Shown piece by piece: positions 46,083-64,000 of a stretch of 64,000 bases of DNA (positions are counted from its first letter, which is position 1; every line of letters starts with the position of its first letter). Location of the stretch: assembly GCA_964612945.1 (NCBI GenBank), contig CAZTFR010000001.1, positions 24,418-88,417 on the forward strand, given 5' to 3'. The DNA is from an uncultured Thermoplasmatales archaeon. Lineage in GTDB: Archaea > Thermoplasmatota > E2 > DHVEG-1. The notes under the pieces are model-generated. The model had not been told where the DNA came from. It did no database searches and saw only the letters and a list, made by a program, of their open reading frames with translations. A program made the translations under genes and the position numbers.

Positions 46083-46137
46083 TACTCTCTTTTTTTTCCC
46101 ATTGCTCACAGTGCATTTGAGAGGTTGTCTTTTTATG

Positions 46138-46211
46138 GGCTTGTAGCTCAGCTAGGTAGAGCAATCGGCTCTTAACCGATTGGCCTGGGGTTCGAATCCC
46201 CACAAGCCCGC
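46138..46211 (+). tRNA. tRNA-Lys (anticodon CUU)
   Basis: Hand-folded cloverleaf. Acceptor GGGCTTG/CAAGCCC. D-arm GCTC-AGCTAGGTA-GAGC. Anticodon stem ATCGG/CCGAT with loop CTCTTAA. T-arm TGGGG-TTCGAAT-CCCCA. Discriminator G. No encoded CCA. Confidence 0.85.
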
Positions 46212-46256
46212 TGTATTTATTCAAGGATTTTTAAACTCTCATAAAAAATTATGGAT

Positions 46257-46982: not shown

Positions 46983-47099
46983 TTTGCGTCCCGTTGATGA
47001 GATATTATGTAAGTTATTAATATCTATCGAAAAACCTCTTGGTGAGTAGCCTTTTTATAAGTATTAAGTGATTTCAATTATTGTACCATAGCACAGACT

Positions 47100-47444
47100 T
47101 TGTGTTTTTTGGTGGTGAACGTTATTCGCAAGAAATGCCCCGAATGTGGTGGTAAAGCAGTGCGCTTGTATCAAAATAAGACAGTGGATGGCAAACGTAA
47201 ATGGGTGCCAATTGCGTGGACGTGTACTAAGTGTAGCTATACGTATACTGTTGCCGGTGATACCCTGTTATATCCCGTAGGTGGTGAGCAATATAAAGAG
47301 GAATACGGTGGTCACTGTCCGAAATGTGATCTTAGACTTATCAGAGTGTTTCGTCATAAAAACCCGGTGCATGGCAAGCAGGAATGGATTTCATCTGCGT
47401 ATTATTGTAGTCGCTGTAAGTATGTGTGGTTGGATAAAAAGTAG
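47100..47444 (+). CDS. tandem double zinc-ribbon protein
   Basis: Two internally repeated modules. CPECGGKAVRLYQNKTVDGKRKWVPIAWTCTKCSYTY and CPKCDLRLIRVFRHKNPVHGKQEWISSAYYCSRCKYVW. Confidence 0.4.
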   Translation: MCFLVVNVIRKKCPECGGKAVRLYQNKTVDGKRKWVPIAWTCTKCSYTYTVAGDTLLYPVGGEQYKEEYGGHCPKCDLRLIRVFRHKNPVHGKQEWISSAYYCSRCKYVWLDKK

Positions 47445-47468
47445 TTTGATCTTTTGTTCTTGTTGATA

Positions 47469-47504
47469 CCCTAAAACATTTAAATAGAACTATCTGTTTT
47501 AGGG
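47469..47504. promoter_or_regulatory. perfect 10-bp inverted repeat enclosing a TATA-like element upstream of L41e
   Basis: CCCTAAAACA-TTTAAATAGAACTATC-TGTTTTAGGG. The loop contains TTTAAATA about 45 nt upstream of the L41e ATG. GAGG lies 8 nt before the ATG. Confidence 0.35.
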
Positions 47505-47528
47505 CACGATATATTCAGAGGATACTAG

Positions 47529-47627
47529 AATGAAACGTAGTTCACGAGTATGGAAAAAACGCGGCCGTATGCGCTGGAAATGGCGAAAGAAACGAATGCG
47601 ACGAGAAAAACGCAGTCGGCGGAAGTA
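47529..47627 (+). CDS. rpl41e: ribosomal protein L41e (32 aa, highly basic), absent from the ORF track
   Basis: Translates to MKRSSRVWKKRGRMRWKWRKKRMRREKRSRRK. Matches the L41e K/R-rich consensus (…KWRKKRMRRLKRKRR…). Archaea/eukaryote-specific protein. Confidence 0.75.
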
Positions 47628-47653
47628 AGTAATCTGAGTATATCTTTGATACT

Positions 47654-47793
47654 CTGGGAGCATGGTGTAACCCGGCATCATTGTGGGCTCCAGTTAGGAA
47701 TGATTACAACAGGGTCATCTGATTTGGTGATGAGTAACTGGAGCGATGACCTAAGAAGAGACCCGCCGATCTGGGTTCAAATCCCAGTGCTCC
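47654..47793 (+). tRNA. intron-containing tRNA, most consistent with tRNA-Gln (CUG) carrying two introns
   Basis: Canonical acceptor GGGAGCA/TGCTCCC plus A. T-arm CTGGG-TTCAAAT-CCCAG. Candidate anticodon stem GGGTC/GACCC with loop AT-CUG-A interrupted by a 36-nt insert at 37/38. A second insert of about 31 nt lies between the D-arm and the anticodon stem. Exons total 73 nt. Confidence 0.55.
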
Positions 47794-47824
47794 CATACCG
47801 AATTGATTAAATACTACCTTTGAG

Positions 47825-48061
47825 GTGCATGAACATATGGCGATGGAAAATCCCTTTCAAACAGCAACGCTTTCCTGGAAACTCATCTTATCTGTTATTG
47901 TCATTATTATTGGTGTTGGTTATTGGCTCTATTGGGGGCTTACCTACAACGTATGGATGGATATCGGCATCTACTCTGTTACTATCTTTTTTGTCCTTTC
48001 TGGTATTTGCGGTCTCCTTCTGTTTTTATTAGGATCAAACACGCAATCACAAGACATATAA
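47825..48061 (+). CDS. small 2-TM membrane protein
   Basis: 78 aa with two hydrophobic helices. An overlapping alternative frame 47820..48032 makes the exact frame uncertain. Confidence 0.25.
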   Translation: MHEHMAMENPFQTATLSWKLILSVIVIIIGVGYWLYWGLTYNVWMDIGIYSVTIFFVLSGICGLLLFLLGSNTQSQDI

Positions 48062-48102
48062 CATCTCCCCCTAAAAACAACCAAAAGATTTAAATAGTAT
48101 AT

Positions 48103-48312
48103 ATGATAATGGTGAAGCGGATGGAACAAGACGACCTGTTAAAAAAATATTCTGGTGAATGGATCGTACTCTTTAATGACGAAATCGTAGATCACAGTTA
48201 CAATCTTGAGGATATGCTTAAAGTAGTTGATGAAAAATATTCTTCGGATAAGCGACCGGAAGACCAGATAAAAATATCAAAAGTCTTATCTGGGAACATT
48301 CATTTACACTGA
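48103..48312 (+). CDS. small protein (DUF5678-like) coupled to the retropepsin gene
   Basis: 69 aa (GEWIVLFNDEIVDHSYNLEDMLKVVDEKY). Its stop abuts the GTG start of the next gene. Confidence 0.4.
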   Translation: MIMVKRMEQDDLLKKYSGEWIVLFNDEIVDHSYNLEDMLKVVDEKYSSDKRPEDQIKISKVLSGNIHLH

Positions 48313-48711
48313 GTGCAGATGACAAAACAATCCTATACTTTCGAATATAATGATTATCCGTTAATCCCCATCAAGTTCACTTTTAATGGTCGAGAGACAC
48401 CAATGATTGATGCCTTACTTGACAGCGGTGGCGATTTTATTGTGATCCCTCAAGCAATCGCCGTCTATCTGGGATTAAAACTCGAACAAGCAGGTTGCGT
48501 AGATACTGCGGCAGGGGAAACAAATCTCTGCAGGGCACTTGTTGATCTCACCTTTTATGATAAACATCAAAAGTTCACCTATTCTAATCTTGAAATCCAT
48601 GTCTCTGATAGAAATGATATCCCTGTGCTTCTGGGGAGAAAACCAATTTTTGAGGATTATGAGATAACCTTTAAAAAACATAGCAATCAGCTTATTCTAA
48701 CCCCTGTGTAA
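48313..48711 (+). CDS. retropepsin-like aspartic peptidase (clan AA)
   Basis: ALLDSGGDFIVIP carries the D-S/T-G-A active-site signature. 132 aa, consistent with a homodimeric single-lobe pepsin. Frame starts at GTG immediately after the upstream TGA. Confidence 0.6.
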   Translation: MQMTKQSYTFEYNDYPLIPIKFTFNGRETPMIDALLDSGGDFIVIPQAIAVYLGLKLEQAGCVDTAAGETNLCRALVDLTFYDKHQKFTYSNLEIHVSDRNDIPVLLGRKPIFEDYEITFKKHSNQLILTPV

Positions 48712-48814
48712 ATGACTTTTTTCCACCGCTTCTGTTTCTTGGGGAGTTATAGGGAGAAAATTAGGAGAAGGTTTAAATGTCGGAATATCTATTCCCCTCT
48801 GGAGGTGTGAGATT

Positions 48815-49000
48815 TTGGCCTACACACATGATGGATGGACCCTGTATAAGAGAGATGTAACTTTGAAAGGCGGGCGCCAGCAGACGATTTATTTCTTTAG
48901 TAAGCGAACTCCTAAGAGTGGTACTCCTACCGATATGCCACCAGGATATGCCGTCGGAGTTAACAAACGAACGGGTCTACCGTATCTGAAGAAAAAATAA
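48815..49000 (+). CDS. small conserved-looking hypothetical protein (TTG start)
   Basis: 61 aa. GGAGGTG 7 nt upstream of the TTG start. Basic C-terminus. Confidence 0.3.
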   Translation: MAYTHDGWTLYKRDVTLKGGRQQTIYFFSKRTPKSGTPTDMPPGYAVGVNKRTGLPYLKKK

Positions 49001-49071
49001 GATAAAGCTTATTTTTCTCTTCTTTTTTTCGTATTACGTTGAGAAACAAACATAAGCTTTTTAATAGCTGG

Positions 49072-50250
49072 TTAGGTGATTTTTTTTTGAAAGATTCGAT
49101 AGGTATTTTTGTGTTTTGCTCCTGTTTTTTCAATCATGCGCAGTGATGCACTATTTTTTTCATCAATAGGTCCACAGATTACTGCGGTATACTTTCGTTT
49201 TTTCATTTCTTGTATGATATGATAGGTTAGACGACTCCCAAGTCCTTGTGATCGCGCGTCTTTTTTGATGCCTGCGTAATTCATTCTACCTTTTGTTATG
49301 GCCCGTTGGTTGAGAAAGAAGTGTAGGATTTGCCGGGGTCCAATTTTTCCTTTCATTTGTTGAAAGAGTTGGTTATATTCTGGTGTTGACCAATGAAATG
49401 CTATAGGGTTTCCTTTTTTTTCTGCGACAAGAAACAGATCGGTGTCGATAAACCAGCGTGCTTGTTTTATACCAAAGCGATTTCGTACTTCTTCATCTGA
49501 TGCGGGGACGTATCCCCAATGGGGTGAGAATATTTCTTTTAGTAAGGGTATCCACCATGAGAGTTCTTTATTGGTGTGCCATCGGTTGAATGGTCGAATG
49601 GCTATATTGTTCTGTATTTTGGTGTCTTCTTCTTTTTGTATATCCTTTGGCAGGGGCGATGTTAGATCGAGGTGATACAGATAGAAATCACGGATTTTTT
49701 TCATGCCGTAGTGTTCTGCGAAGAGTGGATAGTATGGCGGGTTATGCAGGCAGAGTAATGGTTGGAGGTTGTCAAATCCTTTGATGAGAAATCCAATACC
49801 ATTGTCGAATCGACCATTTATGGGTCCGATCATCAGGGTGCATTGTTGTTGTTTGAGCCAGTTTTCGGCGGTGTGAAAGAGGGCGGTGGCAACTTCTGGG
49901 TCGTTGATACTTTCAAAGAATCCAAAAAATCCTGTCCGATCTGCTTCTGGGATGGTAAATACATCGTCAACGATTGCGGCGATACGGCCTACGATTGTGT
50001 TGTTTTTCTGTGCAAGATAGAGACGAGCTGAAGCATGTTGCCAGAAGGGGTTTTTGCTTTGAAAAAAAGATTTGTATTCCATCCAGAAGGGAGTTACAAA
50101 GTTTCTATCTTTTTTATAGATTTGTTGTGTGCCGTAGTAAAATGATTTGAACTGAGAATGGGTGTGTACGGGGATGATATTCGTTCCGTTGATGTGGTAT
50201 GTTTGTTCCCAGGGTTTTTTTTGGAAGATGTATCGTGGTTTGAGTGGCAT
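49072..50250 (-). CDS. GNAT-fold acyltransferase-like protein
   Basis: C-terminal RMNYAGIKKDARSQGLGSRLTYHIIQ resembles the GNAT motif A (Q/R-x-x-G-x-G/A). 392 aa, larger than a simple GNAT, possibly a duplicated FemAB-like fold. Confidence 0.4.
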   Translation of the reverse strand: MPLKPRYIFQKKPWEQTYHINGTNIIPVHTHSQFKSFYYGTQQIYKKDRNFVTPFWMEYKSFFQSKNPFWQHASARLYLAQKNNTIVGRIAAIVDDVFTIPEADRTGFFGFFESINDPEVATALFHTAENWLKQQQCTLMIGPINGRFDNGIGFLIKGFDNLQPLLCLHNPPYYPLFAEHYGMKKIRDFYLYHLDLTSPLPKDIQKEEDTKIQNNIAIRPFNRWHTNKELSWWIPLLKEIFSPHWGYVPASDEEVRNRFGIKQARWFIDTDLFLVAEKKGNPIAFHWSTPEYNQLFQQMKGKIGPRQILHFFLNQRAITKGRMNYAGIKKDARSQGLGSRLTYHIIQEMKKRKYTAVICGPIDEKNSASLRMIEKTGAKHKNTYRIFQKKIT

Positions 50251-50434
50251 GTTTGTTCGTTGGAGGATGAAAACTGATGGGTGCTCTTAAGCATCACCTC
50301 CAAGATGCGAGTGCGAATGTTTATATAACAATTGTTTCTTATTATATTGTACTCTAGTTTGTGGGGGCTTTCAGGTAATTTATACTATTTGGATTCACCA
50401 ACGCCATATTGCACTGCTGTTCGTTCTGCTTTTT

Positions 50435-52279
50435 TTGCTACCCTCTGGTTTTTTTCCCATCGGTAGTTCCGTGCCAGATAAGAGTGAACCATGTTATGGG
50501 TTTGTAATTCCTCTTCCTGCAGGGGAGTTTATCGCCGACGAAACGTTAAGGAATAGTCGGATGCGTGAATTAGTAAATGATCTTCTTCGGGATAATGTGT
50601 CTGTCTTTTGGCTTGATCAGAATCTCTCTGTTCTGACCCAGGGGTTATATGATGCTTCTTTGCCGTGTACGCGGAGGTTTAAGCGCGGTGCAGTTGTAGT
50701 TCCATTTTCAGGGGAGAATCTGTCTGATTCGATGGTTATTTCGGTAGTCTATGATTATAATATGACCTCTGAGATATCGGATTCTTCGTATCAGGTGCCA
50801 GTATTTTGTTTACGCGAGCCGGTATGCATGAAGGCGATGAAGCTTGTTGAACCTCGTATAGCTCAGTATTTTGGTGCTTCAACCCGGTATGGACTTCCCG
50901 TGTATCTCTGGGTTGCAGAAGCTGGTGGTTTTTTTAGTTTTGAGTTTCTCCTTGATCACGAGACACCGTCGGACCTTGATATTGAGTCATATAACGTGTT
51001 TATGTGGCCGTATCGTCCGCATCTTAGCTCTAATGTTGAAACTGTTCGCAGTCTTACAAATACACGAATCTGTAATGCGGTTCGGTCTTTTGTGTCCTCA
51101 GGTGGCGGATATATTGGATCATGTTATGGTGCTGCTGCTGCTTCTGCAGGTTTTCTCCGTCCGGTTCCTATATTTTCTCTTCGACATTTCTATCTTCCAC
51201 GTCTTTATCGCCGTCATCCCTTTGTAAGTTTTTCTCTGAGTGATACCGTGATGAGTCAGTCGTATCTTGTTTTACAAAATGCCTATGTGTCTCATTCAGA
51301 AGTTGCGGAGAGCGCTCATCCTCTTGTTGCAGGTATTAATAGAACGGTCACAGAGTTTTTTACCGGTCCCTGGTTTGTCTGGCTGGGCGATGCTACTCAG
51401 ACGCATGCGGTGTTTTCTGAATTTGAGTTCAATCAGTCCATTAGTCCACCGCTTGCCGCCTTTCGGAAAATACAGGGGACTCCTTCGTGGGTGTCCTCAC
51501 AGTTTGGTGATGGTCGGGTGGTCTTATTCAGTAGTCATCCAGAGTTTGTAAATAATATCAGTTTTCTGTTAGAGAGATATAACTGGCAGGGTGATCCTTT
51601 TAGTGGTCGGCGGGTTGTGCATAATGCGTTATGGTATGTTACTGGGCAGCAGGCAGCAGATTGTAAGGCAGTTATCAGCCAGCCTATTGCCTTTGTTTCC
51701 TCTGTTTGTATGAAAACAAGAAACCTTGATATTTCTTACTCACAGGATGATATTTTTGAAAAGATTCATCGTCAAATCATCGAGATGAATCACAATATTT
51801 CACAGATGTATAATCAATCCCGCCGGTTGCTACAACTCTATATTACAAGATTTGACAATACTGTTTTTGCATCAAAAGCAGGTATTCATTCGTACATTGG
51901 AAACCTCTGTAAAGATTATGTTCGCTGGAATAATAAAACGCAGCAGACCTTACAAGTGCTTAACAGTATCTTGCAGAACACTGATGGCTATGAGAATCGG
52001 ATGGGAGAACTTGATACCTTACTTCATGATTTACAGACATATATTTTCGACGCGGGGTGTGTTATTCAAGACGTTTTTGAGAGAGGTAATAGACTTGAGA
52101 AGAGATTTGGTAGTAGTCAGTTTCTATTCTCATCGCTGTATCTGTTTTCACAATCTCGGACTCTGTTACGGACTTTTCACATTGTTTTAAAATATCTTCC
52201 GCAGATGTACTTTTCATCAGAAAAATTCATGCGAACCATTTGGCATTCGTATGAAGCATCTATGGGAATAGCATCGTAA
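50435..52279 (+). CDS. hypothetical protein with class-I glutamine-amidotransferase-like (BPL_N-like) N-domain
   Basis: SGGGYIGSCYGAAAASAGF and VVLFSSHPE resemble the BPL_N/GATase1-like fold. C-terminal about 200 aa helical. Frame begins with TTG, so the true start is uncertain. Pyrimidine (T)-rich coding strand. Confidence 0.35.
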   Translation: MLPSGFFPIGSSVPDKSEPCYGFVIPLPAGEFIADETLRNSRMRELVNDLLRDNVSVFWLDQNLSVLTQGLYDASLPCTRRFKRGAVVVPFSGENLSDSMVISVVYDYNMTSEISDSSYQVPVFCLREPVCMKAMKLVEPRIAQYFGASTRYGLPVYLWVAEAGGFFSFEFLLDHETPSDLDIESYNVFMWPYRPHLSSNVETVRSLTNTRICNAVRSFVSSGGGYIGSCYGAAAASAGFLRPVPIFSLRHFYLPRLYRRHPFVSFSLSDTVMSQSYLVLQNAYVSHSEVAESAHPLVAGINRTVTEFFTGPWFVWLGDATQTHAVFSEFEFNQSISPPLAAFRKIQGTPSWVSSQFGDGRVVLFSSHPEFVNNISFLLERYNWQGDPFSGRRVVHNALWYVTGQQAADCKAVISQPIAFVSSVCMKTRNLDISYSQDDIFEKIHRQIIEMNHNISQMYNQSRRLLQLYITRFDNTVFASKAGIHSYIGNLCKDYVRWNNKTQQTLQVLNSILQNTDGYENRMGELDTLLHDLQTYIFDAGCVIQDVFERGNRLEKRFGSSQFLFSSLYLFSQSRTLLRTFHIVLKYLPQMYFSSEKFMRTIWHSYEASMGIAS

Positions 52280-53222
52280 CGATGTTTGCTGTCCAATTGT
52301 CCTTTCTCTCTTTGCAGGGGGAAGAAGTGATTCTTTTACCATGGTGTATAATCAATATAACTGTCCCCGCATTTGGTACAGACCATGCGGATATATTGAC
52401 CATCGAATCCCACTACAACATAGAGATGGTTACACGGTGGTTGCATCTCCATGGATTCACCCAAAGTATTTTATCACTCATTATTTATATATGTTTCCCC
52501 CATAGTAACGAATAAGAACACGCGTAACATATCAGTGAATTCAGAGTGTCAAATCGCTCTCTAAAAGAAATATCTTCCCGGAGGATGCTGACTGTTAGAA
52601 AAGACAACAGAGCGTCTCTTTGTTCACTATCTGTCTAGATTTTTTTTTTCCCAGGGGGAGGGCTGGTAAAATCTCATGTGTTTTAGGTTAATCCACGTAC
52701 TGAAAAAATTGGACGTGATTTTTCAGCGGCATCATATTCATCTGTTGCCTTTTCTTCACACTTCGGATCAGCTTTTTCCACAAGTTGTGGATGCTCATAC
52801 TTTTGAGTTAATGTTCTCATTCGATGACTAATATAGGAGATATTCAGGATGAACTGAATGTCTTCTATCTCGTCCATATCCGCAGATACACCACCTATAA
52901 CTATTTGATCTTTCATCATACTTAACATGTGTTAACCGATATTTATATTAGTTTCGTTTGTACCAAAAAATAATCCGCACAGACGGAAACTATATTAAGG
53001 GGTTTATACAATTGGGATTTTGTGGGGTCTAGGTAAAAACATACGTTTTTCACTATACTAATTTCATTTCAATCTTTCCTCCCGAAATGAACGCTAGGCC
53101 CCATTCCTTCTGACCCATTGTTTTTTTGTCTACACAATTCTTAAAAAAGTATAGCAACATAACCCCTGTGAAATTTTTTTCAAAAGCCGTTCAGGGGACA
53201 CGGTATCGCAGGACAAAGGACA

Positions 53223-53987
53223 ATGAAAACAAAAATTGCTGAGACTCCAACAGCCGTCAAATCACTCAATTTTATTCAGACCTTTCATCAGAAAAAACCA
53301 GAGAAAACCTCACTTATCGTCATTGGAGATTGCATGGTTGATTATCGGGGGCGAGCACAATCGTTTCTTGATTGGGGGGAACGTATATTGCTTATCAAAC
53401 AAGATGAAACCGTTCTTGTTCACCGACCAACTATGCGTGAACCGGTCAACTGGCAGCCCGCAGGATCGACAACCTCGTGGAAGGTTGAAAACAACCGTTT
53501 GGTCCTTCGCTGTCGCCATTCCCAGCCACCGGAAAAAATGAAAGTCGTTTTCCGATCGCAAATCGCATTGCTGGTCACGTCTCTTTGTGATCAAGCACAG
53601 CTTGCAATCGCAGGCATGGAAGTTGATGTGGTCAATCAGATTATTTGTGATCCAAAGGTTATCGAGGAGGGCCTACGGATTAACAAACGGGAAAAACAGG
53701 TAAAATCAGGTATGATCGATCTGTATGGATATGACAAAAATCATACCCCTGTGGTCATAGAGGTAAAACGCAGCCTTGCCACCATTAGTGCGGTACATCA
53801 ACTTCGCATGTATGTCAATGACATCAAAAACGATGTCAAAGAAGCAGAAGTGCGAGGGATTCTTTGTGCACCCAAAGTTCCAGATATGGTCAAACATTTA
53901 CTTTCCGACTATGGTCTTGAATGGCAAGAAGTTGAACGACAGGTTATTCTCCCGGATGATTTTCAAAAAACCCTACAAGATTTTTAA
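53223..53987 (+). CDS. nucS: endonuclease NucS/EndoMS (mismatch-specific RecB-like nuclease)
   Basis: VDYRGRAQS and REPVNWQPAGS N-domain. C-terminal IDLYGYDKNHTPVVIEVKR PD-(D/E)xK core. Confidence 0.85.
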   Translation: MKTKIAETPTAVKSLNFIQTFHQKKPEKTSLIVIGDCMVDYRGRAQSFLDWGERILLIKQDETVLVHRPTMREPVNWQPAGSTTSWKVENNRLVLRCRHSQPPEKMKVVFRSQIALLVTSLCDQAQLAIAGMEVDVVNQIICDPKVIEEGLRINKREKQVKSGMIDLYGYDKNHTPVVIEVKRSLATISAVHQLRMYVNDIKNDVKEAEVRGILCAPKVPDMVKHLLSDYGLEWQEVERQVILPDDFQKTLQDF

Positions 53988-55526
53988 CCGTGCTTCAATA
54001 AATGAGAAGAGTTGTTGGAGAACGTGAAAGATGCGACTGTGTTGCTGTGGTATCACTGAGTGATGCGGCATGCTTACCGAACGAGTACTCCATTCACTTT
54101 CAAATTGAGAGCTGTCTCTTGCTTTCACCCGTATAGTAAAGGATCCTTCTTCATCCCAGGTATGGGTAAAGAGTACTTCTTCTCCTGAATCATATTCTCC
54201 CTGCCAGTCCAAAAAGGTATTGTCCCCCCAATCAATATAATAGGAGAGCTGATCCTCATCGGGATCTATTGATGATATCGTAAACTGATAGGGTGTATTA
54301 ACCTCTCCTTCAACCGGTCCTTTTATTTGTGGAGAACTCGGAGCAGCTCCTTGATTGAACTGGTCGATGACAACCTTGGTAGGGCCATATCCTACAGGGT
54401 ATTCTCGTCTATCTTCAAATTCGGCTTTATCTGTTGCATAGAGAACAGATACGGATTTATTCACCCCAAAATTTGCCACTACTAAATCTGCAAATTTATC
54501 ACCATTCAAATACTCTGTAGTAACCCCCCAAGGATTGTTGCCTACAGGGTATGATAGATGATTCTTAAAGCTTCCATCTCCAACTCCTTTATAAATACAA
54601 ATTTTGTTGTGGTAGCTATCGGTAAACGCAATATCTCGAATTGTATCCTGATCAAAGTCTTCTACACAAAAACACTTCGGAACTCCCGTTAGGTCTGTAA
54701 TAATAGGGTCAGAAAATACAAACTGTCCATCTCCCAGATACACGGTTAGGGGTCCATCAAAATATTTATTGAGTACAGCAATATCTTGATACTCATCATT
54801 ATTGTAATCCTGTATTTCGATGTGTTCTGGATATAATCCCTCACTCGGTAACTGAGCGACTTGTGTAAAATTCCCTGTTCCATCTCCTTTAAAAACGATA
54901 ATTTCTGCCACATCATAATCAGTTACTACAAGATCGAGACAGTCGTCATTATTTAGATCACCACTTGTAAGTGCATAAGGACAATCCCCTGCTGAAATAT
55001 TATAATAGTAAGAAAATGTACCGGTTCCATCTCCTAAAAAGATACGGATCTGTTCCTCATAACAAAGGGTGGTAAGTAAATCAAGGTATCCATCTTGGTT
55101 GACATCAAAAGTTATTATTTCTTGGGGATAACGTCCGCCAGTAAATGTTTGATGTTTGGTAAATGCACCCTGACCATCACCAAGAAGAATTGTGATCAAA
55201 CCATCTACAATATCACAAACAGCAATATCGTTTTTTAAATCTGCATTGAAATCACCAGCGCAGATACCCAGTGCTAAACCTTCTGTGGTATAATTCACAA
55301 CTCTATGAAATCCATCATTTTGATCATTCAGAAGGATTCCCACACTTTCCCAGTTCGTGTTGAGAACAGCAATATCAACATAATTATCTTTTGGAAGATG
55401 TGTTGAAGAAGGTAATTGGTAGTCCTGTTGATCTGTGTCTGAAAATGCACATTGTGACAGACCCTGCACGCTCAAGCTTATCGTTAATAAGAATATGATA
55501 CAGAGAGGATAGGTTTGTTTATTCAT
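53973..55526 (-). CDS. secreted FG-GAP/VCBS-repeat beta-propeller protein
   Basis: Signal peptide MNKQTYPLCIIFLLTISLSVQG. Repeated DxNxDGxxD-type motifs (DFNADLKNDIAV, DVNQDGYLDLL, DLNNDDCLDLVV, DYNNDEYQDIAV). Start taken at internal Met 55526. Confidence 0.6.
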   Translation of the reverse strand: MNKQTYPLCIIFLLTISLSVQGLSQCAFSDTDQQDYQLPSSTHLPKDNYVDIAVLNTNWESVGILLNDQNDGFHRVVNYTTEGLALGICAGDFNADLKNDIAVCDIVDGLITILLGDGQGAFTKHQTFTGGRYPQEIITFDVNQDGYLDLLTTLCYEEQIRIFLGDGTGTFSYYYNISAGDCPYALTSGDLNNDDCLDLVVTDYDVAEIIVFKGDGTGNFTQVAQLPSEGLYPEHIEIQDYNNDEYQDIAVLNKYFDGPLTVYLGDGQFVFSDPIITDLTGVPKCFCVEDFDQDTIRDIAFTDSYHNKICIYKGVGDGSFKNHLSYPVGNNPWGVTTEYLNGDKFADLVVANFGVNKSVSVLYATDKAEFEDRREYPVGYGPTKVVIDQFNQGAAPSSPQIKGPVEGEVNTPYQFTISSIDPDEDQLSYYIDWGDNTFLDWQGEYDSGEEVLFTHTWDEEGSFTIRVKARDSSQFESEWSTRSVSMPHHSVIPQQHSRIFHVLQQLFSFIEARLKIL

Positions 55527-55625
55527 TCTCGTATGCCCCTGTCTATTAATAGTATCTATTCTAATATATAAACATTTACGTAAAAATATATAAAAATCAA
55601 ATACTATGTATAGCACTACATCATT

Positions 55626-56716
55626 TTACGATACCGCTGCAAGATCAATCGCATTATACGCACAGACCTCATGACAACAATAACACCTGATACATTTCGA
55701 ATAATCAACTGTTGAAATATCCTTCAGTTCAATTGCATCACATGGACAAATCTTCACACATTCTCCGCATCGCACGCATTTCTCCGTTGGCAGAGGACTT
55801 CGACTCGTTTGTTTTTTTCCAGTTAATAAATATCCTGCTGTAGAAGGTAACTTGAAACCCTCAAAGCTGACTTCTTGCGGAAAAAGTAAGGGATACTCAA
55901 TTTGTTGGGGCCAGAGTTTTCGAAGCTTAGCCTGTTTGAGCGTGGGTACGCCCATCGGCTCAATTCCAAGTATCTGACATACCGCGCGATAAAGGGCGAC
56001 GGGATTTTCGGATGCCAACAACACACCGATATCGGCGGGATCACTCCCCTGATGGTCCATTTCCCGGCATACCAACAATACCATCCATAATCACCAGATC
56101 AGGAAGTATTATCTCAAGGATATCCAAGAGCATATCTGCAAACGCACTCCGGCGGATATAAGTGGAGTGATACCAAACCTTGGTAAGACCAGAGACACCA
56201 CCATACATAATCTTTGTGGCAAGCGTCATCATCAGTGAATGCGTCTTCAGCTTTGGAAGTGCAATAATGACATCTGCATCTAAGATAAAGCGACCAATCG
56301 GTGCTTTTTTTAGCTTTTTTCCCTCTGGGAGCGGCATGGTTTTTGAGCGCGTATCATAATTCAGCTTAATACCCAACTCATCTGAAAGCGTTTTCAAACC
56401 AGATTTTTTATACGTTTTCTGCAGACGACGTTTCGTAAACGGACCTGATGGGGAATCACCGATCACCGGTACAACCACCCACCTGGAGAACCGATTTGGC
56501 AACAGCACCCGCCACTGCAGGATGCGTTACCATCTGTTTCTCCGGCTCTATGGCATTTAACAAATTCGTTTTTAATACAACATGATCGCCAGACTTAACA
56601 AAATGATCCATTCCTTCTAATAGATCTAAAAGTGAGGTGAGAGCAATATCTTCATATGATGATCTTTGGATACAAACCGTTGCGGTTGATGAAAAATCTG
56701 CTGAAGGCATATACAA
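55626..56716 (-). pseudogene. DUF362 domain protein fused to 2x[4Fe-4S] ferredoxin, interrupted by two frameshifts
   Basis: Three successive overlapping minus-strand ORFs (56456..56716, 56041..56508, 55626..56084) read as N-terminal, middle and C-terminal parts of one DUF362+ferredoxin protein (VVLKTNLL...THPAVAGAV / VIGDSPSGP...DGIVGMPGNGPSG / DPADIGVLLASENPVAL...CVRCGECVKICPCDAIE). Confidence 0.55.
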
Positions 56717-56783
56717 AAAGGGATTCCAACGTCCTTAATAAATGGGAAGGATCCAATATTATTATAGTAGAAAGATGGTATAT

Positions 56784-57479
56784 TTATTCTGTTATGTGAT
56801 ACCTCGATTTTAGTTTTCGTGCCCAGTATATGAATGGTGTATCAAACCCAGCTACAATCACCTTAAGGAGAAGTGAAGTGAGAAAAATCTGCAAGATGAT
56901 TCCCCAAGAAAAAACACCAACAAAAGCAATAAGGGTAAAAATTGTGTTATCTATCAATTGACTGGAGAGGGTAGAAAGATTATTTCTCACCCACAGATTT
57001 TGAGATTTTTGTTTTTCCTTCAGTTTTGAAAAGATCCATACATCATGATGTTGTGAAATCAAGTACGCAATCAAACTTGCAACCGTAATACGTGGGAGAA
57101 ACTCAAAAATCGCAGCAAGATGAGAACTCAAAAAATCAGATTCATCTGGGACAAACTGAAGTGTTATCTGCATCACAACCGTAGTTGCAATAAGAACAAA
57201 AAACCCAATCCATACTGCATTTTGCGCATCCTTTTTTGAATGATTTTCATTCAGGATATCTGTCACTAGAAAAAGCGAGGAATAAATCACATTTCCAAGT
57301 GCAGTAACAAGTCCAAATATCTCAATGGTTTTCATCACTTGTATGTTTGCAAGGATCACCGCGGTGGCAGTCCAAATATACAGGCCGGTTTTTCCAAAGA
57401 GACGATAGGCGATAATCACAATTAGAAAGCCACTGATAAGCAGACCAAACCATAAGAGTTCATTGATCATTTCCGCCAC
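56784..57479 (-). CDS. yhhQ: queuosine-precursor transporter (YhhQ/DUF165 family)
   Basis: 231 aa, 6 TM helices. LFLVTDILNE and VRNNLSTLSSQLIDNTIFTLIAF match YhhQ family signatures. Confidence 0.65.
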   Translation of the reverse strand: MAEMINELLWFGLLISGFLIVIIAYRLFGKTGLYIWTATAVILANIQVMKTIEIFGLVTALGNVIYSSLFLVTDILNENHSKKDAQNAVWIGFFVLIATTVVMQITLQFVPDESDFLSSHLAAIFEFLPRITVASLIAYLISQHHDVWIFSKLKEKQKSQNLWVRNNLSTLSSQLIDNTIFTLIAFVGVFSWGIILQIFLTSLLLKVIVAGFDTPFIYWARKLKSRYHITE

Positions 57480-57517
57480 GAAAATATTTAACTCACTATT
57501 ATTGTTTCGATTCCTGT

Positions 57518-58705
57518 ATGGGATATCTTGATTTCCAAATTACCACGCACGATGGCACCGCGCGAACTGGCCTTCTCACTGTGAAACATGGACAGATTCA
57601 TACTCCCGAACTGATGCCTGTTGCAACCAAAGCAACGGTCAAGGCACTTACTCCTGATGAGCTTCACCAGCTGGGCACCCAAGTACTTATCTGTAACACG
57701 TATCATCTCATGCTGCAGCCCTCTGCAGACATCATCGAGCAATGCGGCGGGCTTCATACCTTTATGAATTGGAACAAACCCCTTATTACTGATAGCGGTG
57801 GATTTCAAGCATTTTCCCTGGGTCTCGGAAAAGAACATGCTGTAGGAAAGCTTTTTTTTCCTGGGGAAAAACACTCGAGTGGAAAACCAAAAGGAAAATC
57901 AATTGCAAAGGTAACTGATAAAGGGATTTCTTTTCGATCAATATATGATAACTCTACTCAATTCTTAACTCCGGAGAAATCTATTAGGATTCAGGAACAG
58001 TTGGGCGCAGATATCATCCTTGCTTTAGATGAATGTACTTCGCCACTCTCTGGGAAAGTATATACTGCAGAAAGTATGAGGCGAACGCATCGATGGGCCG
58101 AGCAATGTAAAAAGATTCATACGACTAATCAGGCACTGGTGGGTATTGTTCAGGGTGGTCACTGGCAGGATCTTCGGATAAAAAGCGCCCGTTTTCTTGC
58201 ATCACTTGATTTTGATGGATATGCAATTGGTGGATCACTAGGAAAATCAAAACAAGATATGCACCATGTGCTGGAATGGGTCATCCCACATCTCCCCTCT
58301 CAAAAACCACGTCATCTACTTGGAATTGGGGTGGTTGAGGATATCTTTGAATCTGTCGAGAGAGGTATCGATTTATTTGATTGTGTTGCTCCAACACGAA
58401 TGGCTCGGAGCGGTTTTTGCTATCTTCGACCCCCTATTGGCACAAAGAAAAACAAATACCGATATAAACTGAAGAACGCTCGATTTAAAACAGATTCGCA
58501 GCCGATTGATCCTCATTGCAACTGCAGTGTCTGCAAAAACTATTCTCGGTCCTATCTCTATCACCTTTTAAAAACAGAGGAACTTATTGTATACACGCTA
58601 CTTAGTTATCATAATCTTTTTTTTATGCTTGAACTGATGAGAGAGATACGAAACGCTATTGCATCTGAACGTTTTCAAGAATTAAAAAGTGAGTGGATAG
58701 GTTGA
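57518..58705 (+). CDS. tgt: tRNA-guanine transglycosylase, bacterial/eukaryotic QTGT-type (queuine tRNA-ribosyltransferase)
   Basis: DGTARTG...HGQIHTPELMPVATKATVK and LICNTYHLMLQP N-terminus. Zinc site CNCSVC...H in DPHCNCSVCKNYSRSYLYHL. 395 aa with no PUA domain. Confidence 0.8.
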   Translation: MGYLDFQITTHDGTARTGLLTVKHGQIHTPELMPVATKATVKALTPDELHQLGTQVLICNTYHLMLQPSADIIEQCGGLHTFMNWNKPLITDSGGFQAFSLGLGKEHAVGKLFFPGEKHSSGKPKGKSIAKVTDKGISFRSIYDNSTQFLTPEKSIRIQEQLGADIILALDECTSPLSGKVYTAESMRRTHRWAEQCKKIHTTNQALVGIVQGGHWQDLRIKSARFLASLDFDGYAIGGSLGKSKQDMHHVLEWVIPHLPSQKPRHLLGIGVVEDIFESVERGIDLFDCVAPTRMARSGFCYLRPPIGTKKNKYRYKLKNARFKTDSQPIDPHCNCSVCKNYSRSYLYHLLKTEELIVYTLLSYHNLFFMLELMREIRNAIASERFQELKSEWIG

Positions 58706-58713
58706 ATTTTTTA

Positions 58714-59079
58714 TTATTGTTTTTTCAGATTCATCTGTGACAGCTTTGAGACAAACTCTATTGAGGTATCAAAAATTTCTTGATCGTTTTGATAGTCCTC
58801 TGAGTTTCCTCTGTTAATTTGAATCCATTCTCTCATCTTTCTTCTCCCCAGTGGTTGAAAATGAACAATGTCCTTTCGTTTGAGAAGTTTATTTGCTACT
58901 GATTCAGGTACTTTCACTCCAACTGCATCTTCAAAGACACAGGCAAATAGTTTTCCTCCTACATAATAGGCGGGATATCCAAACATTTTCCCAGGGTTTA
59001 CTACCGGTATTTTTAAAAGAAGCGTGTCAAGAACCTGTTTATGATGTTCATTGTATTTTGTTTTGCCTATAAAAATCAC
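58714..59079 (-). CDS. TfoX-N/MmcQ-YjbR-like small protein
   Basis: MFGYPAYYVGGKLFACVFEDAVGVKV resembles the TfoX N-terminal / YjbR family core. Confidence 0.3.
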   Translation of the reverse strand: MIFIGKTKYNEHHKQVLDTLLLKIPVVNPGKMFGYPAYYVGGKLFACVFEDAVGVKVPESVANKLLKRKDIVHFQPLGRRKMREWIQINRGNSEDYQNDQEIFDTSIEFVSKLSQMNLKKQ

Positions 59080-60103: not shown

Positions 60104-60375
60104 TTTTTCAATCAGTTTTTTTAAACTAACAATTCAGTAGAAAGAAGAGAACCAATCTATGGATACGGTGAAGGCAGGTCTTCGTATTGTCAATGTGCAT
60201 TATCTTTTTTTTAGTACTTAACAGTACACTCTTCTTATTTCGATGATTGTATCTTGGAATATTTTTTCAAACTATGAAGATTCTTTTTGGATTTGGTATT
60301 TATAAAATATAAAGCTTTTTTTTTAGAAATATTTATATATTACAATATATAATAATATGCTGGGGTAATAAAAGT

Positions 60376-63300
60376 ATGACAACGAAAATGATTGAATTCT
60401 CTCTTTGTATGCTGTTGATTATCGGATCACTCAATCCTGTAATCGCAAATGAAGAAATAGAAGAATTAGAAGAAGATATCTATGTAGTTACGTCCACCTC
60501 GGCTTTTACACAACCAATAGTTAATGATATCCAATTGGATGGAAACAAGTATCATCAGATACAATTAAACGGCCTTTCCAATGGTGGAAGTCCAGGTGAA
60601 CCATTGTTGCCTATGAAAGCCGTAAGACTATTACTACCACCTAAAACTACAGTTGAAACTATTCAAATCCATTCTTCATCTCCTGAAATAATATCACTTG
60701 CTCATCAAATTGAACCGGCAGGAGAACCTGTCCCCTTATCACAAATGAAATCAGCAAGTCCTCCTCAACCTGATCCACTAGTGTATAATTCTTCAGATCC
60801 TTTCCCAGGTGAGCTCTTTAAGAAGGGTGGTACGTATTATTTTAGAGGATATTCTGTGTTAGTAATTACTCTTTTTCCGGTTCAGTTTCTCCCGACAAAA
60901 AATAAAATTCGATATTACAGTGAAATAACAGTTTCAGTAGACCTGCAGAGCAATGAAAAAAGAAAAAGTCCTCTTTATCGAGGATTAGAAACTGATAAAA
61001 CTGATATTTTAAATAAAATTGATAATCCCGAGGTTATTCACTCTTATGATTCAGAGAATAGTATCTCTATTGCCTCTTATGATCTACTGATTATTACTGA
61101 CGATCAATTCAAGGAGGCCTTTGCTCCTTTAAAACATGCCCATGAGTTTCTAGGGAATCCAACAATTATACAAACCCTTACAGACATTGGAAGTGATAAT
61201 CCAGAGGATATCAGAGATTTTATCCGAGATGCTTACTTGAACTGGGGGATTCAATATGTACTTATAGGCGGCGATAGTCATATTGTTCCCACGGCCAAAT
61301 TAACAAGTTATCAAACATTAATACCCTCTGATCTCTATTATGCCTGTCTTGATGGAACCTTCAATTATGATAACGATGAATACTGGGGAGAACCGACAGA
61401 TGGGGAGAGTGGTGGTGATGTTGACCTTATTGCAGAAGTCTATGTCGGCCGTGCCTGTGTTGATGATTGCGTAGATGTAAAGACCTTTGTTAACAAGACA
61501 ATAGCATATATGACAAAAAATTCCTCTCTAGAATATTATGATAACGTGTTATTAGTGGGAGAAAATCTTGGTTTTGGAGGAATAGCCGAATGGGGCGGCA
61601 ATTATATGGATGAGCTCATTGATGGATCAAAAACCCATGGATATGAAACCGTTGGAATACCCTCAGACAAGTACAATATTGATACATTATATGACAAGGA
61701 TTGGCCGACTCAAAATTGGCCACAAGAAGAAATCATCAAAAAGATAAATAGAGGAACACAATTGATCAATCATCTTGGTCATTCCGGTTATAATTATAAT
61801 ATGAACGTAGGAAATCGTGATGTTATTCTCTCCCTTACAAATAATGAAACCTGTTTTATTTACTCACAGGGATGTGAAGCGGGGGATTTTGATTACCCTT
61901 ATGCAGATTGTATAGCTGAATATTTCACTGTAAAAACTAAACATGGCGCATTTGCAGGAATTTGGAATTCAGAAGATGGGTTTGGCAAAAGTGGGAGCAC
62001 AGATGGTCCATCGCAACGGTTTCACAGAGAATTCTTAGATGCGATCTTTGGGGAAAACATCACAATACTGGGAAAAGCAAATCAAGATTCTAAAGAGGAC
62101 AATCTCTATCGAATCAACGAAACGGTCATGCGGTGGTGTTACTATGAGTTAAATTATTTTGGTGATCCCTTACTCCATTTTGATTTGCCAGATCATAATG
62201 TTGGTGTTGGGAGGATATTTGCTCCAACTCATTTACAATCTCCACGAACAATATCTCTCAATGCCGCTGTTTTCAACAAGGGAAGACATGATGAAGCCAA
62301 TATATCAGTAACTATCCAAATTAATGGAGTTGGCGTTCATTCAGAAATGATTCCGCATCTTCAACGCGCTAGCCAACAATATATCAATTATTCTTGGACG
62401 CCACAAGAAATAGGTTTGTATAATATAACCGTTCAGGTATCAATTCCAGGATATAAAGACGATATACCCTCTGATGATACAAGAACTATCACTATCGCAA
62501 TAGGTGTTCAGAATCTCAATACAACAGAGTGCTTTGCTACAATTCAAGAGGCAATTGATGATTCAGATACGTTAGATGGTCATTGTATCTTTGCTCCATC
62601 TGGCATTTATACGGAGAATATTGTAGTAACAAAAGGTATTTTCTTGCTAGGTGAAGATAAACAAACCACGATACTCCAGAGTACTACATATCATAATACT
62701 GTTGTATCAGTTGAACAAACTGTTGGATTTAGAATTTCAAACTTTCTCATACAAAACGGAAAAACTGGTATCTCTCTTAAGTTTTGTTTTAATAGTGTCG
62801 TCGATGGTAATCGTATTAAAAATAATTTTAAAACTGGCATTGTTTTTCGTTCGTCTGCGAATGGATTCATCAGAGAAAATGAAATCGCTGATAATAGTTT
62901 AGGAGTTCATCTAGCCGGCTGTTCAAATAATATCTCTATTCTTTTCAATTCCATTCATGACAATACTGAAATAAACATTGAAAATCTACCAAATCTCACT
63001 GAAGGATCGATCATCATAAAGACTCCAGAGGAAAAAGGTGGAATTTTTCTTGAAAACACTGACCAATCTGTACTAAAAAATAACACTATTTCTTATAATT
63101 TCATAGGGATTCGCATTCTTGGGGATAGTAAGGGAAATTGCATTATTCACAATATGTTCATAAATAATACAGAGAATTGTTATGATGAAGGACTGCATAA
63201 TCAATGGGATGATGGTTTTCCACTCGGTGGCAATTATTGGTCGATGTATACTGGAGATGATCACTATCGCGGACCAGATCAAGATCGAATTTATCCTGAT

Positions 63301-64000
63301 GGAATAGGTGATAAACCATACCTTATCCCTGGTGGTATGAGTGCCGATCGATATCCTAAACTCTATCCATTTAATGTATCCATCGTCAACACCGACACTG
63401 GCGAAGTTTTTCCGACTATTCAACAAGCGGTAGATAGTAGTAATACCATAGATGGACATCACATTCTTGTATTAAGTGATACATGGTATGAAAATATTGA
63501 AATCCAAAAAAGTATCATCCTTCTTGGTCTTGACCGAAATTATACAACTCTTCAAGATGGAAATGAAAAGAAGTATGATACGATACTCACCCTCCTTGCA
63601 GATAATGTAACTGTTCATGGTTTTACTTTTCAAATCAATAAGTTATACGATAATACGGGGATTAAGGTTTTTTCCTCGGGAAATAACATCTGGGGCAATA
63701 TTTTTTTGAATATAAATAGACCTATTATTCTAGAAAAATCGTCACATAATATGATTTATGATAACACATTTCAATCTGGATATATTAATCTACTTCTTAG
63801 TAATTTTAACACAATTAAGAACAATCGTCTGACAAGCACTGATAAATCCTTTACCGGAATTCGGATACACTCGTCTAATGAAAATACCTTTCTTTATAAC
63901 ACCATTGAAAATCGTAGTGCAGGTATTTTCATAGACTATTCTTACAATAATACAATTTGTTATAACCAAATAGAAAATAATGAATTTGGAATTTTTATAG
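60376..64000 (+). CDS. giant secreted adhesin-like protein: peptidase C25 (gingipain-like) domain plus parallel beta-helix repeats. 5' partial, continues beyond the window
   Basis: Signal peptide MTTKMIEFSLCMLLIIGSLNPVIA. C25-like catalytic region with NHLGHSGYNYN (His) and YSQGCEAGDF (Cys). Repeated PbH1-like units (NNTISYNFIGIRILGDS, NCIIHNMFINNTENC...). Frame open from 60376 to the window end. Many sequons. Confidence 0.7.
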   Translation, partial: MTTKMIEFSLCMLLIIGSLNPVIANEEIEELEEDIYVVTSTSAFTQPIVNDIQLDGNKYHQIQLNGLSNGGSPGEPLLPMKAVRLLLPPKTTVETIQIHSSSPEIISLAHQIEPAGEPVPLSQMKSASPPQPDPLVYNSSDPFPGELFKKGGTYYFRGYSVLVITLFPVQFLPTKNKIRYYSEITVSVDLQSNEKRKSPLYRGLETDKTDILNKIDNPEVIHSYDSENSISIASYDLLIITDDQFKEAFAPLKHAHEFLGNPTIIQTLTDIGSDNPEDIRDFIRDAYLNWGIQYVLIGGDSHIVPTAKLTSYQTLIPSDLYYACLDGTFNYDNDEYWGEPTDGESGGDVDLIAEVYVGRACVDDCVDVKTFVNKTIAYMTKNSSLEYYDNVLLVGENLGFGGIAEWGGNYMDELIDGSKTHGYETVGIPSDKYNIDTLYDKDWPTQNWPQEEIIKKINRGTQLINHLGHSGYNYNMNVGNRDVILSLTNNETCFIYSQGCEAGDFDYPYADCIAEYFTVKTKHGAFAGIWNSEDGFGKSGSTDGPSQRFHREFLDAIFGENITILGKANQDSKEDNLYRINETVMRWCYYELNYFGDPLLHFDLPDHNVGVGRIFAPTHLQSPRTISLNAAVFNKGRHDEANISVTIQINGVGVHSEMIPHLQRASQQYINYSWTPQEIGLYNITVQVSIPGYKDDIPSDDTRTITIAIGVQNLNTTECFATIQEAIDDSDTLDGHCIFAPSGIYTENIVVTKGIFLLGEDKQTTILQSTTYHNTVVSVEQTVGFRISNFLIQNGKTGISLKFCFNSVVDGNRIKNNFKTGIVFRSSANGFIRENEIADNSLGVHLAGCSNNISILFNSIHDNTEINIENLPNLTEGSIIIKTPEEKGGIFLENTDQSVLKNNTISYNFIGIRILGDSKGNCIIHNMFINNTENCYDEGLHNQWDDGFPLGGNYWSMYTGDDHYRGPDQDRIYPDGIGDKPYLIPGGMSADRYPKLYPFNVSIVNTDTGEVFPTIQQAVDSSNTIDGHHILVLSDTWYENIEIQKSIILLGLDRNYTTLQDGNEKKYDTILTLLADNVTVHGFTFQINKLYDNTGIKVFSSGNNIWGNIFLNINRPIILEKSSHNMIYDNTFQSGYINLLLSNFNTIKNNRLTSTDKSFTGIRIHSSNENTFLYNTIENRSAGIFIDYSYNNTICYNQIENNEFGIFI

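Follow-up and report, generated by a model that had tools for sequence, protein, structure and literature searches.

Queuosine (Q) at the wobble position of tRNA is taught as a bacterial and eukaryotic modification, with archaeosine at G15 as its archaeal counterpart. The subject of this work is a head-to-head gene pair for a bacterial-type tRNA-guanine(34) transglycosylase (Tgt) and a queuosine-precursor transporter of the YhhQ/QPTR family, located on a stretch of 64,000 nucleotides from an uncultured Thermoplasmatales archaeon (contig CAZTFR010000001.1, positions 24,418 to 88,417; hereafter the window). The closest working analogue is the pair of bacterial tRNA-guanine transglycosylase (bTGT) and QPTR of Chlamydia trachomatis, to which direct queuine salvage is ascribed (Yuan et al. 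2019, as relayed in PMC11570991 and PMC11130926). As far as those two papers describe the chlamydial system, the same two protein families would make up the whole pathway in both organisms, QueA and QueG/H would be needed in neither, and in both the Tgt pocket is altered relative to that of preQ1 enzymes. Unlike C. trachomatis, the window pair has an archaeal host and consists of divergently paired genes behind predicted promoters of archaeal type; its pocket, known here from sequence, is a shorter GG-SLGK with Lys in place of Glu235, and the enzyme carries a 25-residue insertion. This pocket does not exactly match GG[LS][AS]G, the signature reported for queuine-using TGTs, those that use preQ1 having GGLAVG (PMC11570991).

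Closest to the window enzyme in sequence and pocket are bacterial Tgts whose genes are linked to that of Qng1 (DUF2419). Together with Tgt, Qng1 serves queuine salvage in bacteria such as Sphaerobacter thermophilus; it frees queuine from queuosine-5'-monophosphate, and the bacterium in which it was characterised is without de novo Q genes (PMC9881137). Another described case is that of Castelle et al. 2021, who described QueA, QueH, and Tgt of bacterial type from 34 archaeal genomes of DPANN and Methanosarcinales (PMC8204110). As in the window, a bacterial-type Tgt is found there among archaeal neighbours, and lateral transfer is inferred. However, those sets form a QueA/QueH/Tgt route of preQ1 maturation, whereas the partner in the window is a QPTR protein, and 266 kb of related DNA showed neither QueA nor QueH; the archaeal phylum is another one, and the Tgt belongs to a large, apparently vertically inherited clade. 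Bartonella henselae is similar in its genome context, having Tgt and QPTR only, but its enzyme has the canonical GGLAVGE loop and prefers preQ1 (PMC11570991), and the window Tgt is without that pocket. In human QTRT1, Gly replacing Val233 gives room for the cyclopentenediol ring (PMC6165067); the window Tgt would share with eukaryotic QTRT1/QTRT2 a one-step insertion of queuine at G34 and an enlarged 7-substituent pocket, whereas the loci examined showed no gene for a QTRT2-like partner. With the archaeosine enzyme arcTGT (TgtA) it has in common the TGT catalytic fold and, by prediction, a 7-deazaguanine base as substrate, but it lacks the C1, C2, and PUA domains, and its predicted target is G34, not G15. 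Archaeal homologues from COG1738, the family of the transporter, had been pointed out in 2017, with preQ0 salvage in the service of archaeosine as their assigned role (PMC5372724). A literature search returned no paper linking queuosine with Thermoplasmatota, Thermoprofundales, or Patescibacteria.

The most likely interpretation of the locus, as read from its genes, is a salvage-only, transporter-coupled, variant-pocket form of bacterial Q34 modification that has been fixed in a large archaeal clade. Very probably, the two genes work together in this archaeon to salvage a base of the queuosine family, and on balance this base is probably queuine, which would offer a direct route to Q34. The transporter would import a 7-deazaguanine base made by environmental bacteria, most likely queuine, and Tgt would put it in place of G34 in tRNA-Asp, -Asn, -His, and -Tyr by the usual covalent aspartate mechanism, with D288 as nucleophile, D92 as second catalytic aspartate, and a structural zinc. 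This would give Q34 in a single step, with no need for QueA or QueG/H, as is the case in eukaryotes and Chlamydia. Both genes would be transcribed divergently from interleaved promoters, each with a B recognition element (BRE) and a TATA box, in the 47-bp spacer, yielding near-leaderless mRNAs.

Both open reading frames (ORFs) are present in the head-to-head arrangement given in an earlier, preliminary description of this DNA, and both pass the cut-offs of their families (Table 1). The match of Tgt to Pfam PF01702 (E = 9e-135, 449.7 bits) is a single domain spanning residues 13-394, and a Pfam scan of the protein found no PUA and no C1/C2 domains. Among the NCBIfam equivalogs, Tgt scores above the bacterial Q34 model TIGR00430 (468.2 bits vs. 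a cut-off of 306.75) and below both the arcTGT model TIGR00432 (153.7 vs. 350) and the DpdA model NF041059 (29.4 vs. 200). It is 40% identical to Escherichia coli Tgt, its top sequence match in the PDB is the Zymomonas mobilis enzyme (E = 5e-95), and bacterial TGT gives a higher score (322 bits) than QTRT1 does (259 bits). At least one NCBI record of this type (P0095) already bears the name 'tRNA guanosine(34) transglycosylase Tgt [Thermoplasmatales archaeon]'. These data agree with the bacterial/eukaryotic QTGT architecture put forward in the preliminary description and do not place the protein within arcTGT; the other option raised there, an arcTGT-like enzyme of unusual minimal architecture, finds no support in the scores against TIGR00430 and TIGR00432. 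That the protein might be a DpdA-like DNA-modifying transglycosylase, or a minimal arcTGT acting at G15, is highly unlikely: the TGT fold is common to all these enzymes and weak matches to the DpdA and arcTGT models exist, but both scores lie far below their cut-offs while the Q34 cut-off is passed, the additional arcTGT domains are absent, no dpd genes occur in the contexts examined around the pair, and Arg286, Arg289, and the other checked catalytic and substrate-binding residues are invariant in the clade. A second TGT-family gene, such as one for arcTGT, was not detected in the window or in the related loci (tblastn, E up to 1).

The transporter matches Pfam PF02592 Vut_1 (E = 2.7e-49, 167.9 bits vs. 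a cut-off of 27.2) and passes TIGR00697, 'queuosine precursor transporter' (214.2 vs. 50.95), but fails NF008406, the equivalog of E. coli-type YhhQ (50.9 vs. 252); its identity to E. coli YhhQ is 28% over 145 aa. The mechanically called ORF (56784-57479, minus strand, 231 aa) begins at a GTG at 57479. However, an ATG (57470) four codons inside that start, at the head of the motif M-I/L-N-E-x-L-W, is the yhhQ start in all 16 aligned relatives, and for this reason the protein is taken to be 228 aa long and the spacer 47 bp. The intergenic gap of 38 bp given in the preliminary description relies on the GTG and was revised accordingly, the relatives having 44-48 bp.

Table 1. Features of the yhhQ-tgt locus, with positions in the window and residue equivalents in Z. 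mobilis Tgt
Feature	Position	Strand	Remarks
yhhQ/QPTR-family (COG1738, Vut_1) queuosine-precursor transporter gene	56784-57470	-	228 aa from conserved ATG
Divergent promoter spacer, 47 bp	57471-57517	.	44-48 bp in 16 aligned loci
Box 1, GAAAATATTTA, BRE-like GAAA and TATA-like element, predicted tgt promoter	57480-57490	+	at least 80% conserved, 16 loci
Box 2, plus ACTATTATTGTTTC / minus GAAACAATAATAGT, BRE-like GAAA and TATA-like element, predicted yhhQ promoter	57495-57508	-	ACTTwwAAnnTTTC, 16 loci
tgt, bacterial-type tRNA-guanine(34) transglycosylase gene	57518-58705	+	395 aa; Pfam TGT PF01702
D92-S93-G94-G95-F96-Q97, equivalent to Asp102-Gln107 (catalytic Asp, base-stacking aromatic)	57791-57808	+	invariant 21/21
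25-residue subfamily insertion, residues 103-127, LGKEHAVGKLFFPGEKHSSGKPKGK	57824-57898	+	directly after substrate-stacking segment
Pocket loop G238-G239-S240-L241-G242-K243, in place of canonical G229-G230-L231-A232-V233-G234-E235	58229-58246	+	one residue shorter, Lys for Glu235
D288, equivalent to Asp280, catalytic nucleophile	58379-58381	+	invariant
Zinc site C334-x-C336-x-x-C339...H365, equivalent to Cys318, Cys320, Cys323, His349	58517-58612	+	invariant in clade

The catalytic core of Tgt is intact. In Z. mobilis numbering, D102, S103, D156, Q203, G229, G230, D280, R286, R289, and the zinc motif CxCxxC...H are invariant in 21 of 21 clade members; beyond the residues listed in Table 1, Asp156, Gln203, Gly229, and Gly230 correspond to D171, Q212, G238, and G239 of the window protein, and Arg286 and Arg289 to R294 and R297. 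The C-terminal zinc site of the preliminary description was thus right as to its three cysteines, but the ligand histidine was misplaced in YSRSYLYHL; it is H365, in 'SYHN', that aligns with His349. An AlphaFold2 (AF2) model (pLDDT 82.6, pTM 0.85) has the TGT TIM-barrel fold and superimposes on Z. mobilis TGT with TM-scores of 0.86-0.92 and an rmsd of 1.9 A (Foldseek). A Phe at the position of Tyr106 was considered as a eukaryote-like marker and rejected, since E. coli Tgt also has Phe there; the residue is uninformative as to specificity.

The host of the pair is archaeal on the evidence of its relatives and gene neighbours. A scan of one genome per GTDB species yielded 40 loci, and all matches at 70-75% identity were in metagenome-assembled genomes (MAGs) labelled Thermoplasmatales or Thermoplasmatota archaeon; the next matches to the window Tgt, at 45-54% identity, came from DPANN archaea and from various bacteria. 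A NucS of archaeal type is encoded in the window (244 bits vs. a cut-off of 216). On related long contigs, the pair is found 1-3 kb from the genes for uS13_arch, uS4_arch, arch_S11P, and RpoD, in the archaeal order S13-S4-S11-D, and also near those for archaeal proteasome alpha, Rrp41, Rrp4, SBDS, and archaellin, all of them above model cut-offs; in one locus (L133) it lies between the ribosomal/RpoD cluster and the proteasome/exosome cluster. Different studies contributed many independent contigs, 80-254 kb long, on which such archaeal neighbours recur. Furthermore, the order MMPL transporter, RpiA, KptA, tRNA-Lys(CTT), yhhQ, tgt is common to the window and a 254-kb contig (L043). The archaeal nature of the genome, assumed in the preliminary description, is borne out by these data, which give no indication of a bacterial host. 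A bacterial contig mis-binned into archaeal MAGs, or a chimeric assembly, was set aside as exceedingly improbable: the nearest relatives outside Thermoplasmatota are indeed bacterial (Patescibacteria and others) or DPANN, and the source of one close homologue (P0040) gives it as 'Atribacterota bacterium', but the recurrent archaeal neighbours, the synteny with L043, the conserved archaeal-style promoter boxes in the spacer, and the host-matching GC content all argue to the contrary.

The pair is strictly conserved in this lineage. Protein clusters with 70-78% identity to the window Tgt number more than 120; almost all are 393-409 aa long, most of them exactly 395 aa. A divergent Vut_1 gene lies 44-48 bp from tgt in 19 of the 19 distinct Thermoplasmatota-type loci that have upstream DNA, whereas the other neighbours vary between genomes. 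Pairwise identities among the Thermoplasmatota loci are 69-89% for Tgt and, over 16 loci, 63-88% for YhhQ, and the GC contents of the two genes (0.43 and 0.37) lie on either side of the window mean of 0.40. In this lineage, the module is an old one that has been kept together, without sign of a recent transfer.

Next to the pair, the stretch from tRNA-Lys(CTT) to yhhQ measures 10.6 kb in the window (46137-56783) and 2.9 kb in the syntenic contig L043 (6275-9244), and is a variable region beside a tRNA gene. The extra DNA of the window after the tRNA gene encodes a zinc-ribbon protein, a GNAT protein, a 614-aa protein, NucS, an FG-GAP/PKD protein, and a broken DUF362 gene with a C-terminal 2x[4Fe-4S] domain (55626-56716, minus strand). 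This last gene is divided into three overlapping ORFs (56456-56716, 56041-56508, and 55626-56084) and is either a frameshifted pseudogene or the product of assembly errors. On two related contigs, a gene for a pseudouridine synthase of the bacterial-type RsuA/RluB/RluF family was observed directly upstream of the archaeal S13-S4-S11-RpoD operon (L041, 3761-4501; L135, 4980-5753).

The spacer between the two genes is conserved as well, with the core GAAAATATTTAnTTnACTTwwAAnnTTTC in the 16-locus alignment. On the plus strand, Box 1 consists of a purine-rich, BRE-like GAAA followed by the TATA-like element AATATTTA, centred some 31 nt before the tgt ATG; Box 2, on the minus strand, reads GAAAn followed by an A/T-rich box, centred about 29 nt from the yhhQ ATG. 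The usual position of the archaeal TATA box is -26/-27, and on the assumption that both boxes are so placed, the mRNAs are predicted to start 2-5 nt before the start codons (a leader of about 5 nt for tgt). Transcription from both boxes would then be divergent and near-leaderless, and the two predicted promoters would be interleaved, each TATA box lying inside the opposite promoter. The tightly packed, possibly leaderless promoters proposed in the preliminary description are in line with these two conserved boxes, each some 30 nt from its start codon. Alternatively, the spacer core may be a palindromic regulator site. The preQ1 riboswitch is frequent on bacterial yhhQ genes; in the window, no riboswitch reached gathering scores, the spacer gave no other Rfam family either, and nothing of relevance was detected around the pair at E up to 1. 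A weak snoR60 match near the pair was taken as chance.

The pocket for the 7-substituent of the base is where the window Tgt departs from the canonical enzyme. The canonical preQ1 pocket (GGLAVGE with Tyr258 and Met260) is not present. Of the specificity residues that the preliminary description had singled out for inspection, Cys158 is retained, whereas the Leu231-Glu235 loop, which includes position 233, is non-canonical, one residue shorter, and ends in Lys; further changes are Tyr258 to His, Met260 to Leu, Val262 to Ile, and Pro160-Tyr161 to Ser-Pro. These features, the retained Cys158 and the 25-residue insertion among them, are all invariant in the Thermoplasmatota clade, where the motif IGGSLGK[ST] is found in 134 of 134 proteins; of 120 proteins of the Patescibacteria type, about 100 have GG[SA]LGK[ST]. 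With the loop shortened, the pocket for the 7-substituent would become larger, a change in the same direction as Val233Gly in QTRT1 (PMC6165067). The same signature is present in a Nanoarchaeia sequence (L014) and in an 'uncultured bacterium' (L020) with relatives named Parcubacteria, Nealsonbacteria, Portnoybacteria, Harrisonbacteria, and Patescibacteria. A second mark of the subfamily is the 25-residue insertion, absent from E. coli and Z. mobilis Tgt and present in the enzymes of Thermoplasmatota, DPANN, and Patescibacteria and in the Qng1-linked bacterial ones; its residues K111, F114, and P115 are invariant in alignment A1, and its pLDDT in the AF2 model is below 50. No description of the GG-SLGK pocket was found in the searchable literature, and the supplements of PMC11570991 contain neither GGSLG nor any archaeal or Patescibacteria entries.

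In a distance-based neighbour-joining tree of 129 sequences (100 bootstraps on 67 of them), built without arcTGT and QTRT1 outgroups, the Thermoplasmatota Tgt clade was monophyletic in 100 of 100 bootstraps and sister to a Micrarchaeota sequence in 93. The smallest clade joining Thermoplasmatota, Patescibacteria, and the Qng1-linked locus L049 was free of canonical sequences in 34 of 100 replicates; in a further 60 it included just one (L032). This topology supports a placement of the window Tgt within a bacterial/DPANN subfamily, and names no donor. Taken with the TIGR00430 score and the archaeal host, such nesting favours the queuosine-type salvage of bacterial origin suggested in the preliminary description.

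Other pocket types were encountered among the Tgt sequences sampled. A third type, GGES[VI]GY, occurs in L017, L019, and L024, where QueA is a direct neighbour or no more than 2.7 kb away; these loci come from MAGs that bear the labels Gammaproteobacteria or uncultured bacterium and include a 1.23-Mb chromosome. On a high-GC metagenomic contig (L121, 5902-7859), a Tgt with a GGALEKS pocket is encoded tail-to-tail with a Vut_1 gene, and a related group of eight loci has GGSFxK[DE]D pockets and no adjacent QueA.

The most informative hint at the function of the subfamily comes from the genes found next to tgt. In L020, a gene for PF10343 Q_salvage (Qng1/DUF2419) ends 7 bp ahead of tgt, and the same arrangement was found in a second Patescibacteria contig (L046) and in L049, L050, and L051, the last being an ordinary bacterium with FtsH, FolP, and CoaX neighbours. 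The PF10343 scores are 231-318 bits in L020, L046, L049, and L051, and the window Tgt is identical to the enzymes of these four loci at 26 of 28 inspected pocket positions, although the overall Tgt identity between the archaeal clade and the Qng1-linked bacterial enzymes is 48-53%. The Qng1-linked enzymes also have the same insertion and fall into the same tree subfamily; unlike them, the archaeal clade pairs Tgt with a transporter, not with a hydrolase. Among 18 variant-pocket loci outside Thermoplasmatota, Qng1 is adjacent in 5 and QueA in none; the 65 canonical-pocket loci have Qng1 adjacent in none and QueA in 23; in the 18 loci of the Thermoplasmatota clade neither gene is adjacent. Counting only bacterial loci whose enzymes have the pocket of the window Tgt, Qng1 directly precedes tgt in 5 of 8 and QueA is beside it in none, the reverse of what canonical enzymes show. 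The metagenome scan sampled other Tgt types, with no Thermoplasmatota-type loci among the matches listed. Fisher tests gave P = 3e-4 for Qng1 and 2e-3 for QueA, values that are indicative only, as the loci are phylogenetically non-independent.

These neighbourhoods bear on the possibility that the transporter imports preQ1 (or preQ0) and that Tgt inserts preQ1 at G34, with maturation to Q by QueA and QueH/QueG encoded elsewhere, as proposed for DPANN, or with preQ1 kept, as in B. henselae. This is unlikely, though it deserves serious consideration. E. coli YhhQ transports both preQ0 and preQ1 (PMC5372724), Cys158 is retained in the window Tgt, QueA, QueH, and Tgt are co-localised in DPANN archaea (PMC8204110), a Woesearchaeota locus (L038) has QueA beside tgt, and B. 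henselae, with bTGT and QPTR only, uses preQ1 (PMC11570991). However, the canonical loop is absent, above all Leu231 and Glu235, and QueA is not a neighbour in either group of variant loci, in contrast to more than a third of the canonical ones. Furthermore, Qng1, the partner of the bacterial enzymes that share this pocket, releases queuine and not preQ1, and the QueA-linked non-canonical enzymes that were sampled carry other loops, GGES[VI]GY and GGEFG.

QueE-like genes, which encode 209-aa radical SAM proteins, were the sole Q-pathway matches in the 266 kb of Thermoplasmatota-type DNA around the pair; QueA, QueC, QueD, QueF, and QueG were not found there (tblastn with E. coli queries), nor were they found in the window. 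The five best NCBIfam matches of the QueE-like protein are all QueE models, the top one with 229 bits and below its cut-off of 300. The gene follows that of proteasome alpha, in the exosome/proteasome superoperon, in L001 (7142-7771), L012, L013, L021, and L133 (8438-9067), and it lies within 0.2-1.4 kb of yhhQ in L001, L007, L012, L021, and L133. Its presence points to synthesis of preQ0 within the lineage, presumably to feed archaeosine.

The same point is the main support for the proposal that the transporter salvages preQ0 and that Tgt inserts preQ0, QueE-made or imported, perhaps followed by further conversion, a proposal that we regard as quite unlikely. In Z. mobilis TGT, Glu235 controls the Leu231/Ala232 peptide switch, and on a preQ0 reading its replacement by Lys would favour an acceptor of the nitrile; the earlier prediction that archaeal COG1738 homologues salvage preQ0 (PMC5372724) points in the same direction. 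Against this, in L013 the QueE-like gene remains beside that of the proteasome although the pair is 8 kb distant, and for that reason its proximity to yhhQ is read as inherited synteny rather than as an operon. A cell making preQ0 internally would also have less need for a dedicated preQ0 importer co-regulated with Tgt, so that an importer of queuine or preQ1 is more plausible. In addition, the same pocket goes with Qng1 in Patescibacteria, and Tgt is without the C-terminal domains of arcTGT and fails the arcTGT model. There is also a slim chance that the GG-SLGK enzymes of Thermoplasmatota, DPANN, and Patescibacteria form a specificity class of their own, for a base that is neither preQ1 nor queuine; that base may be preQ0 from the nearby QueE-like enzyme or a novel 7-deazaguanine, perhaps converted further on the tRNA, and the archaeal tRNAs of this lineage would then carry an undescribed modification at the wobble position. 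Any other role of the pair, or an artefact, appears very improbable.

Several observations count against queuine as the salvaged base. The pocket loop has no literal match to the published queuine signature GG[LS][AS]G (PMC11570991): ungapped, GGSLG fits the GGxxG spacing with Leu at the fourth position, but the alignment instead sets a one-residue deletion. The window Tgt keeps Cys158, which is Val in QTRT1, and among characterised QPTR proteins the substrate is not predicted by sequence (PMC11130926, PMC11570991). The non-independence of the loci in the association counts weakens the statistical link, and this link is bacterial only, Qng1 having been found neither in the window nor in any archaeal locus examined. 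QueA and QueG/H were not found in the 64-kb window or in the 266 kb of related DNA, but this is local DNA and says little about whole genomes; genes for QueA, QueH, or QueF could be located in another part of the genome, as they are in DPANN (PMC8204110). Finally, the QueE-like gene abuts yhhQ in L007 and L133, which is compatible with a preQ0-related role.

No tRNA gene with a GUN anticodon is present in the window or in 18 related loci. Elsewhere in the window, a 121-aa ORF (58714-59079, minus strand) converges on tgt with 8 bp between them; it has weak TfoX_N/YjbR similarity below the Pfam cut-offs and is not conserved beside the pair in other loci. Further downstream, a stop-free frame of at least 1229 codons (approximately 60313-64000, plus strand; GC 29-39%) is open at the window end, for which reason the ORF list does not include it, and presumably belongs to a giant surface protein. 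At the other side, some 25 co-directional genes (9692-36363, plus strand) encode proteins whose N termini resemble, by eye, sugar-nucleotide/nonulosonic-acid biosynthesis enzymes and glycosyltransferases; this run is followed on the opposite strand by a gene for a MOP flippase (36684-38207), identified in a family library scan.

The novelty of the locus is to be seen in the light of what was already available: a 2021 report had described bacterial Q genes in archaea, the name Tgt is already in use for such proteins in databases, and queuine is proposed here from sequence and gene context. The textbook generalisation on archaea is contradicted, though it had already been dented in 2021. This work delimits a Tgt subfamily, characterised by GG-SLGK, His258, Leu260, and the 25-residue insertion, that spans Patescibacteria, DPANN, and Thermoplasmatota, and the gene neighbours of its members give a testable prediction of queuine specificity. 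If queuine salvage is indeed the function of the pair, a major free-living archaeal group would depend, like eukaryotes, on a bacterial micronutrient for the decoding of NAU/NAC codons.

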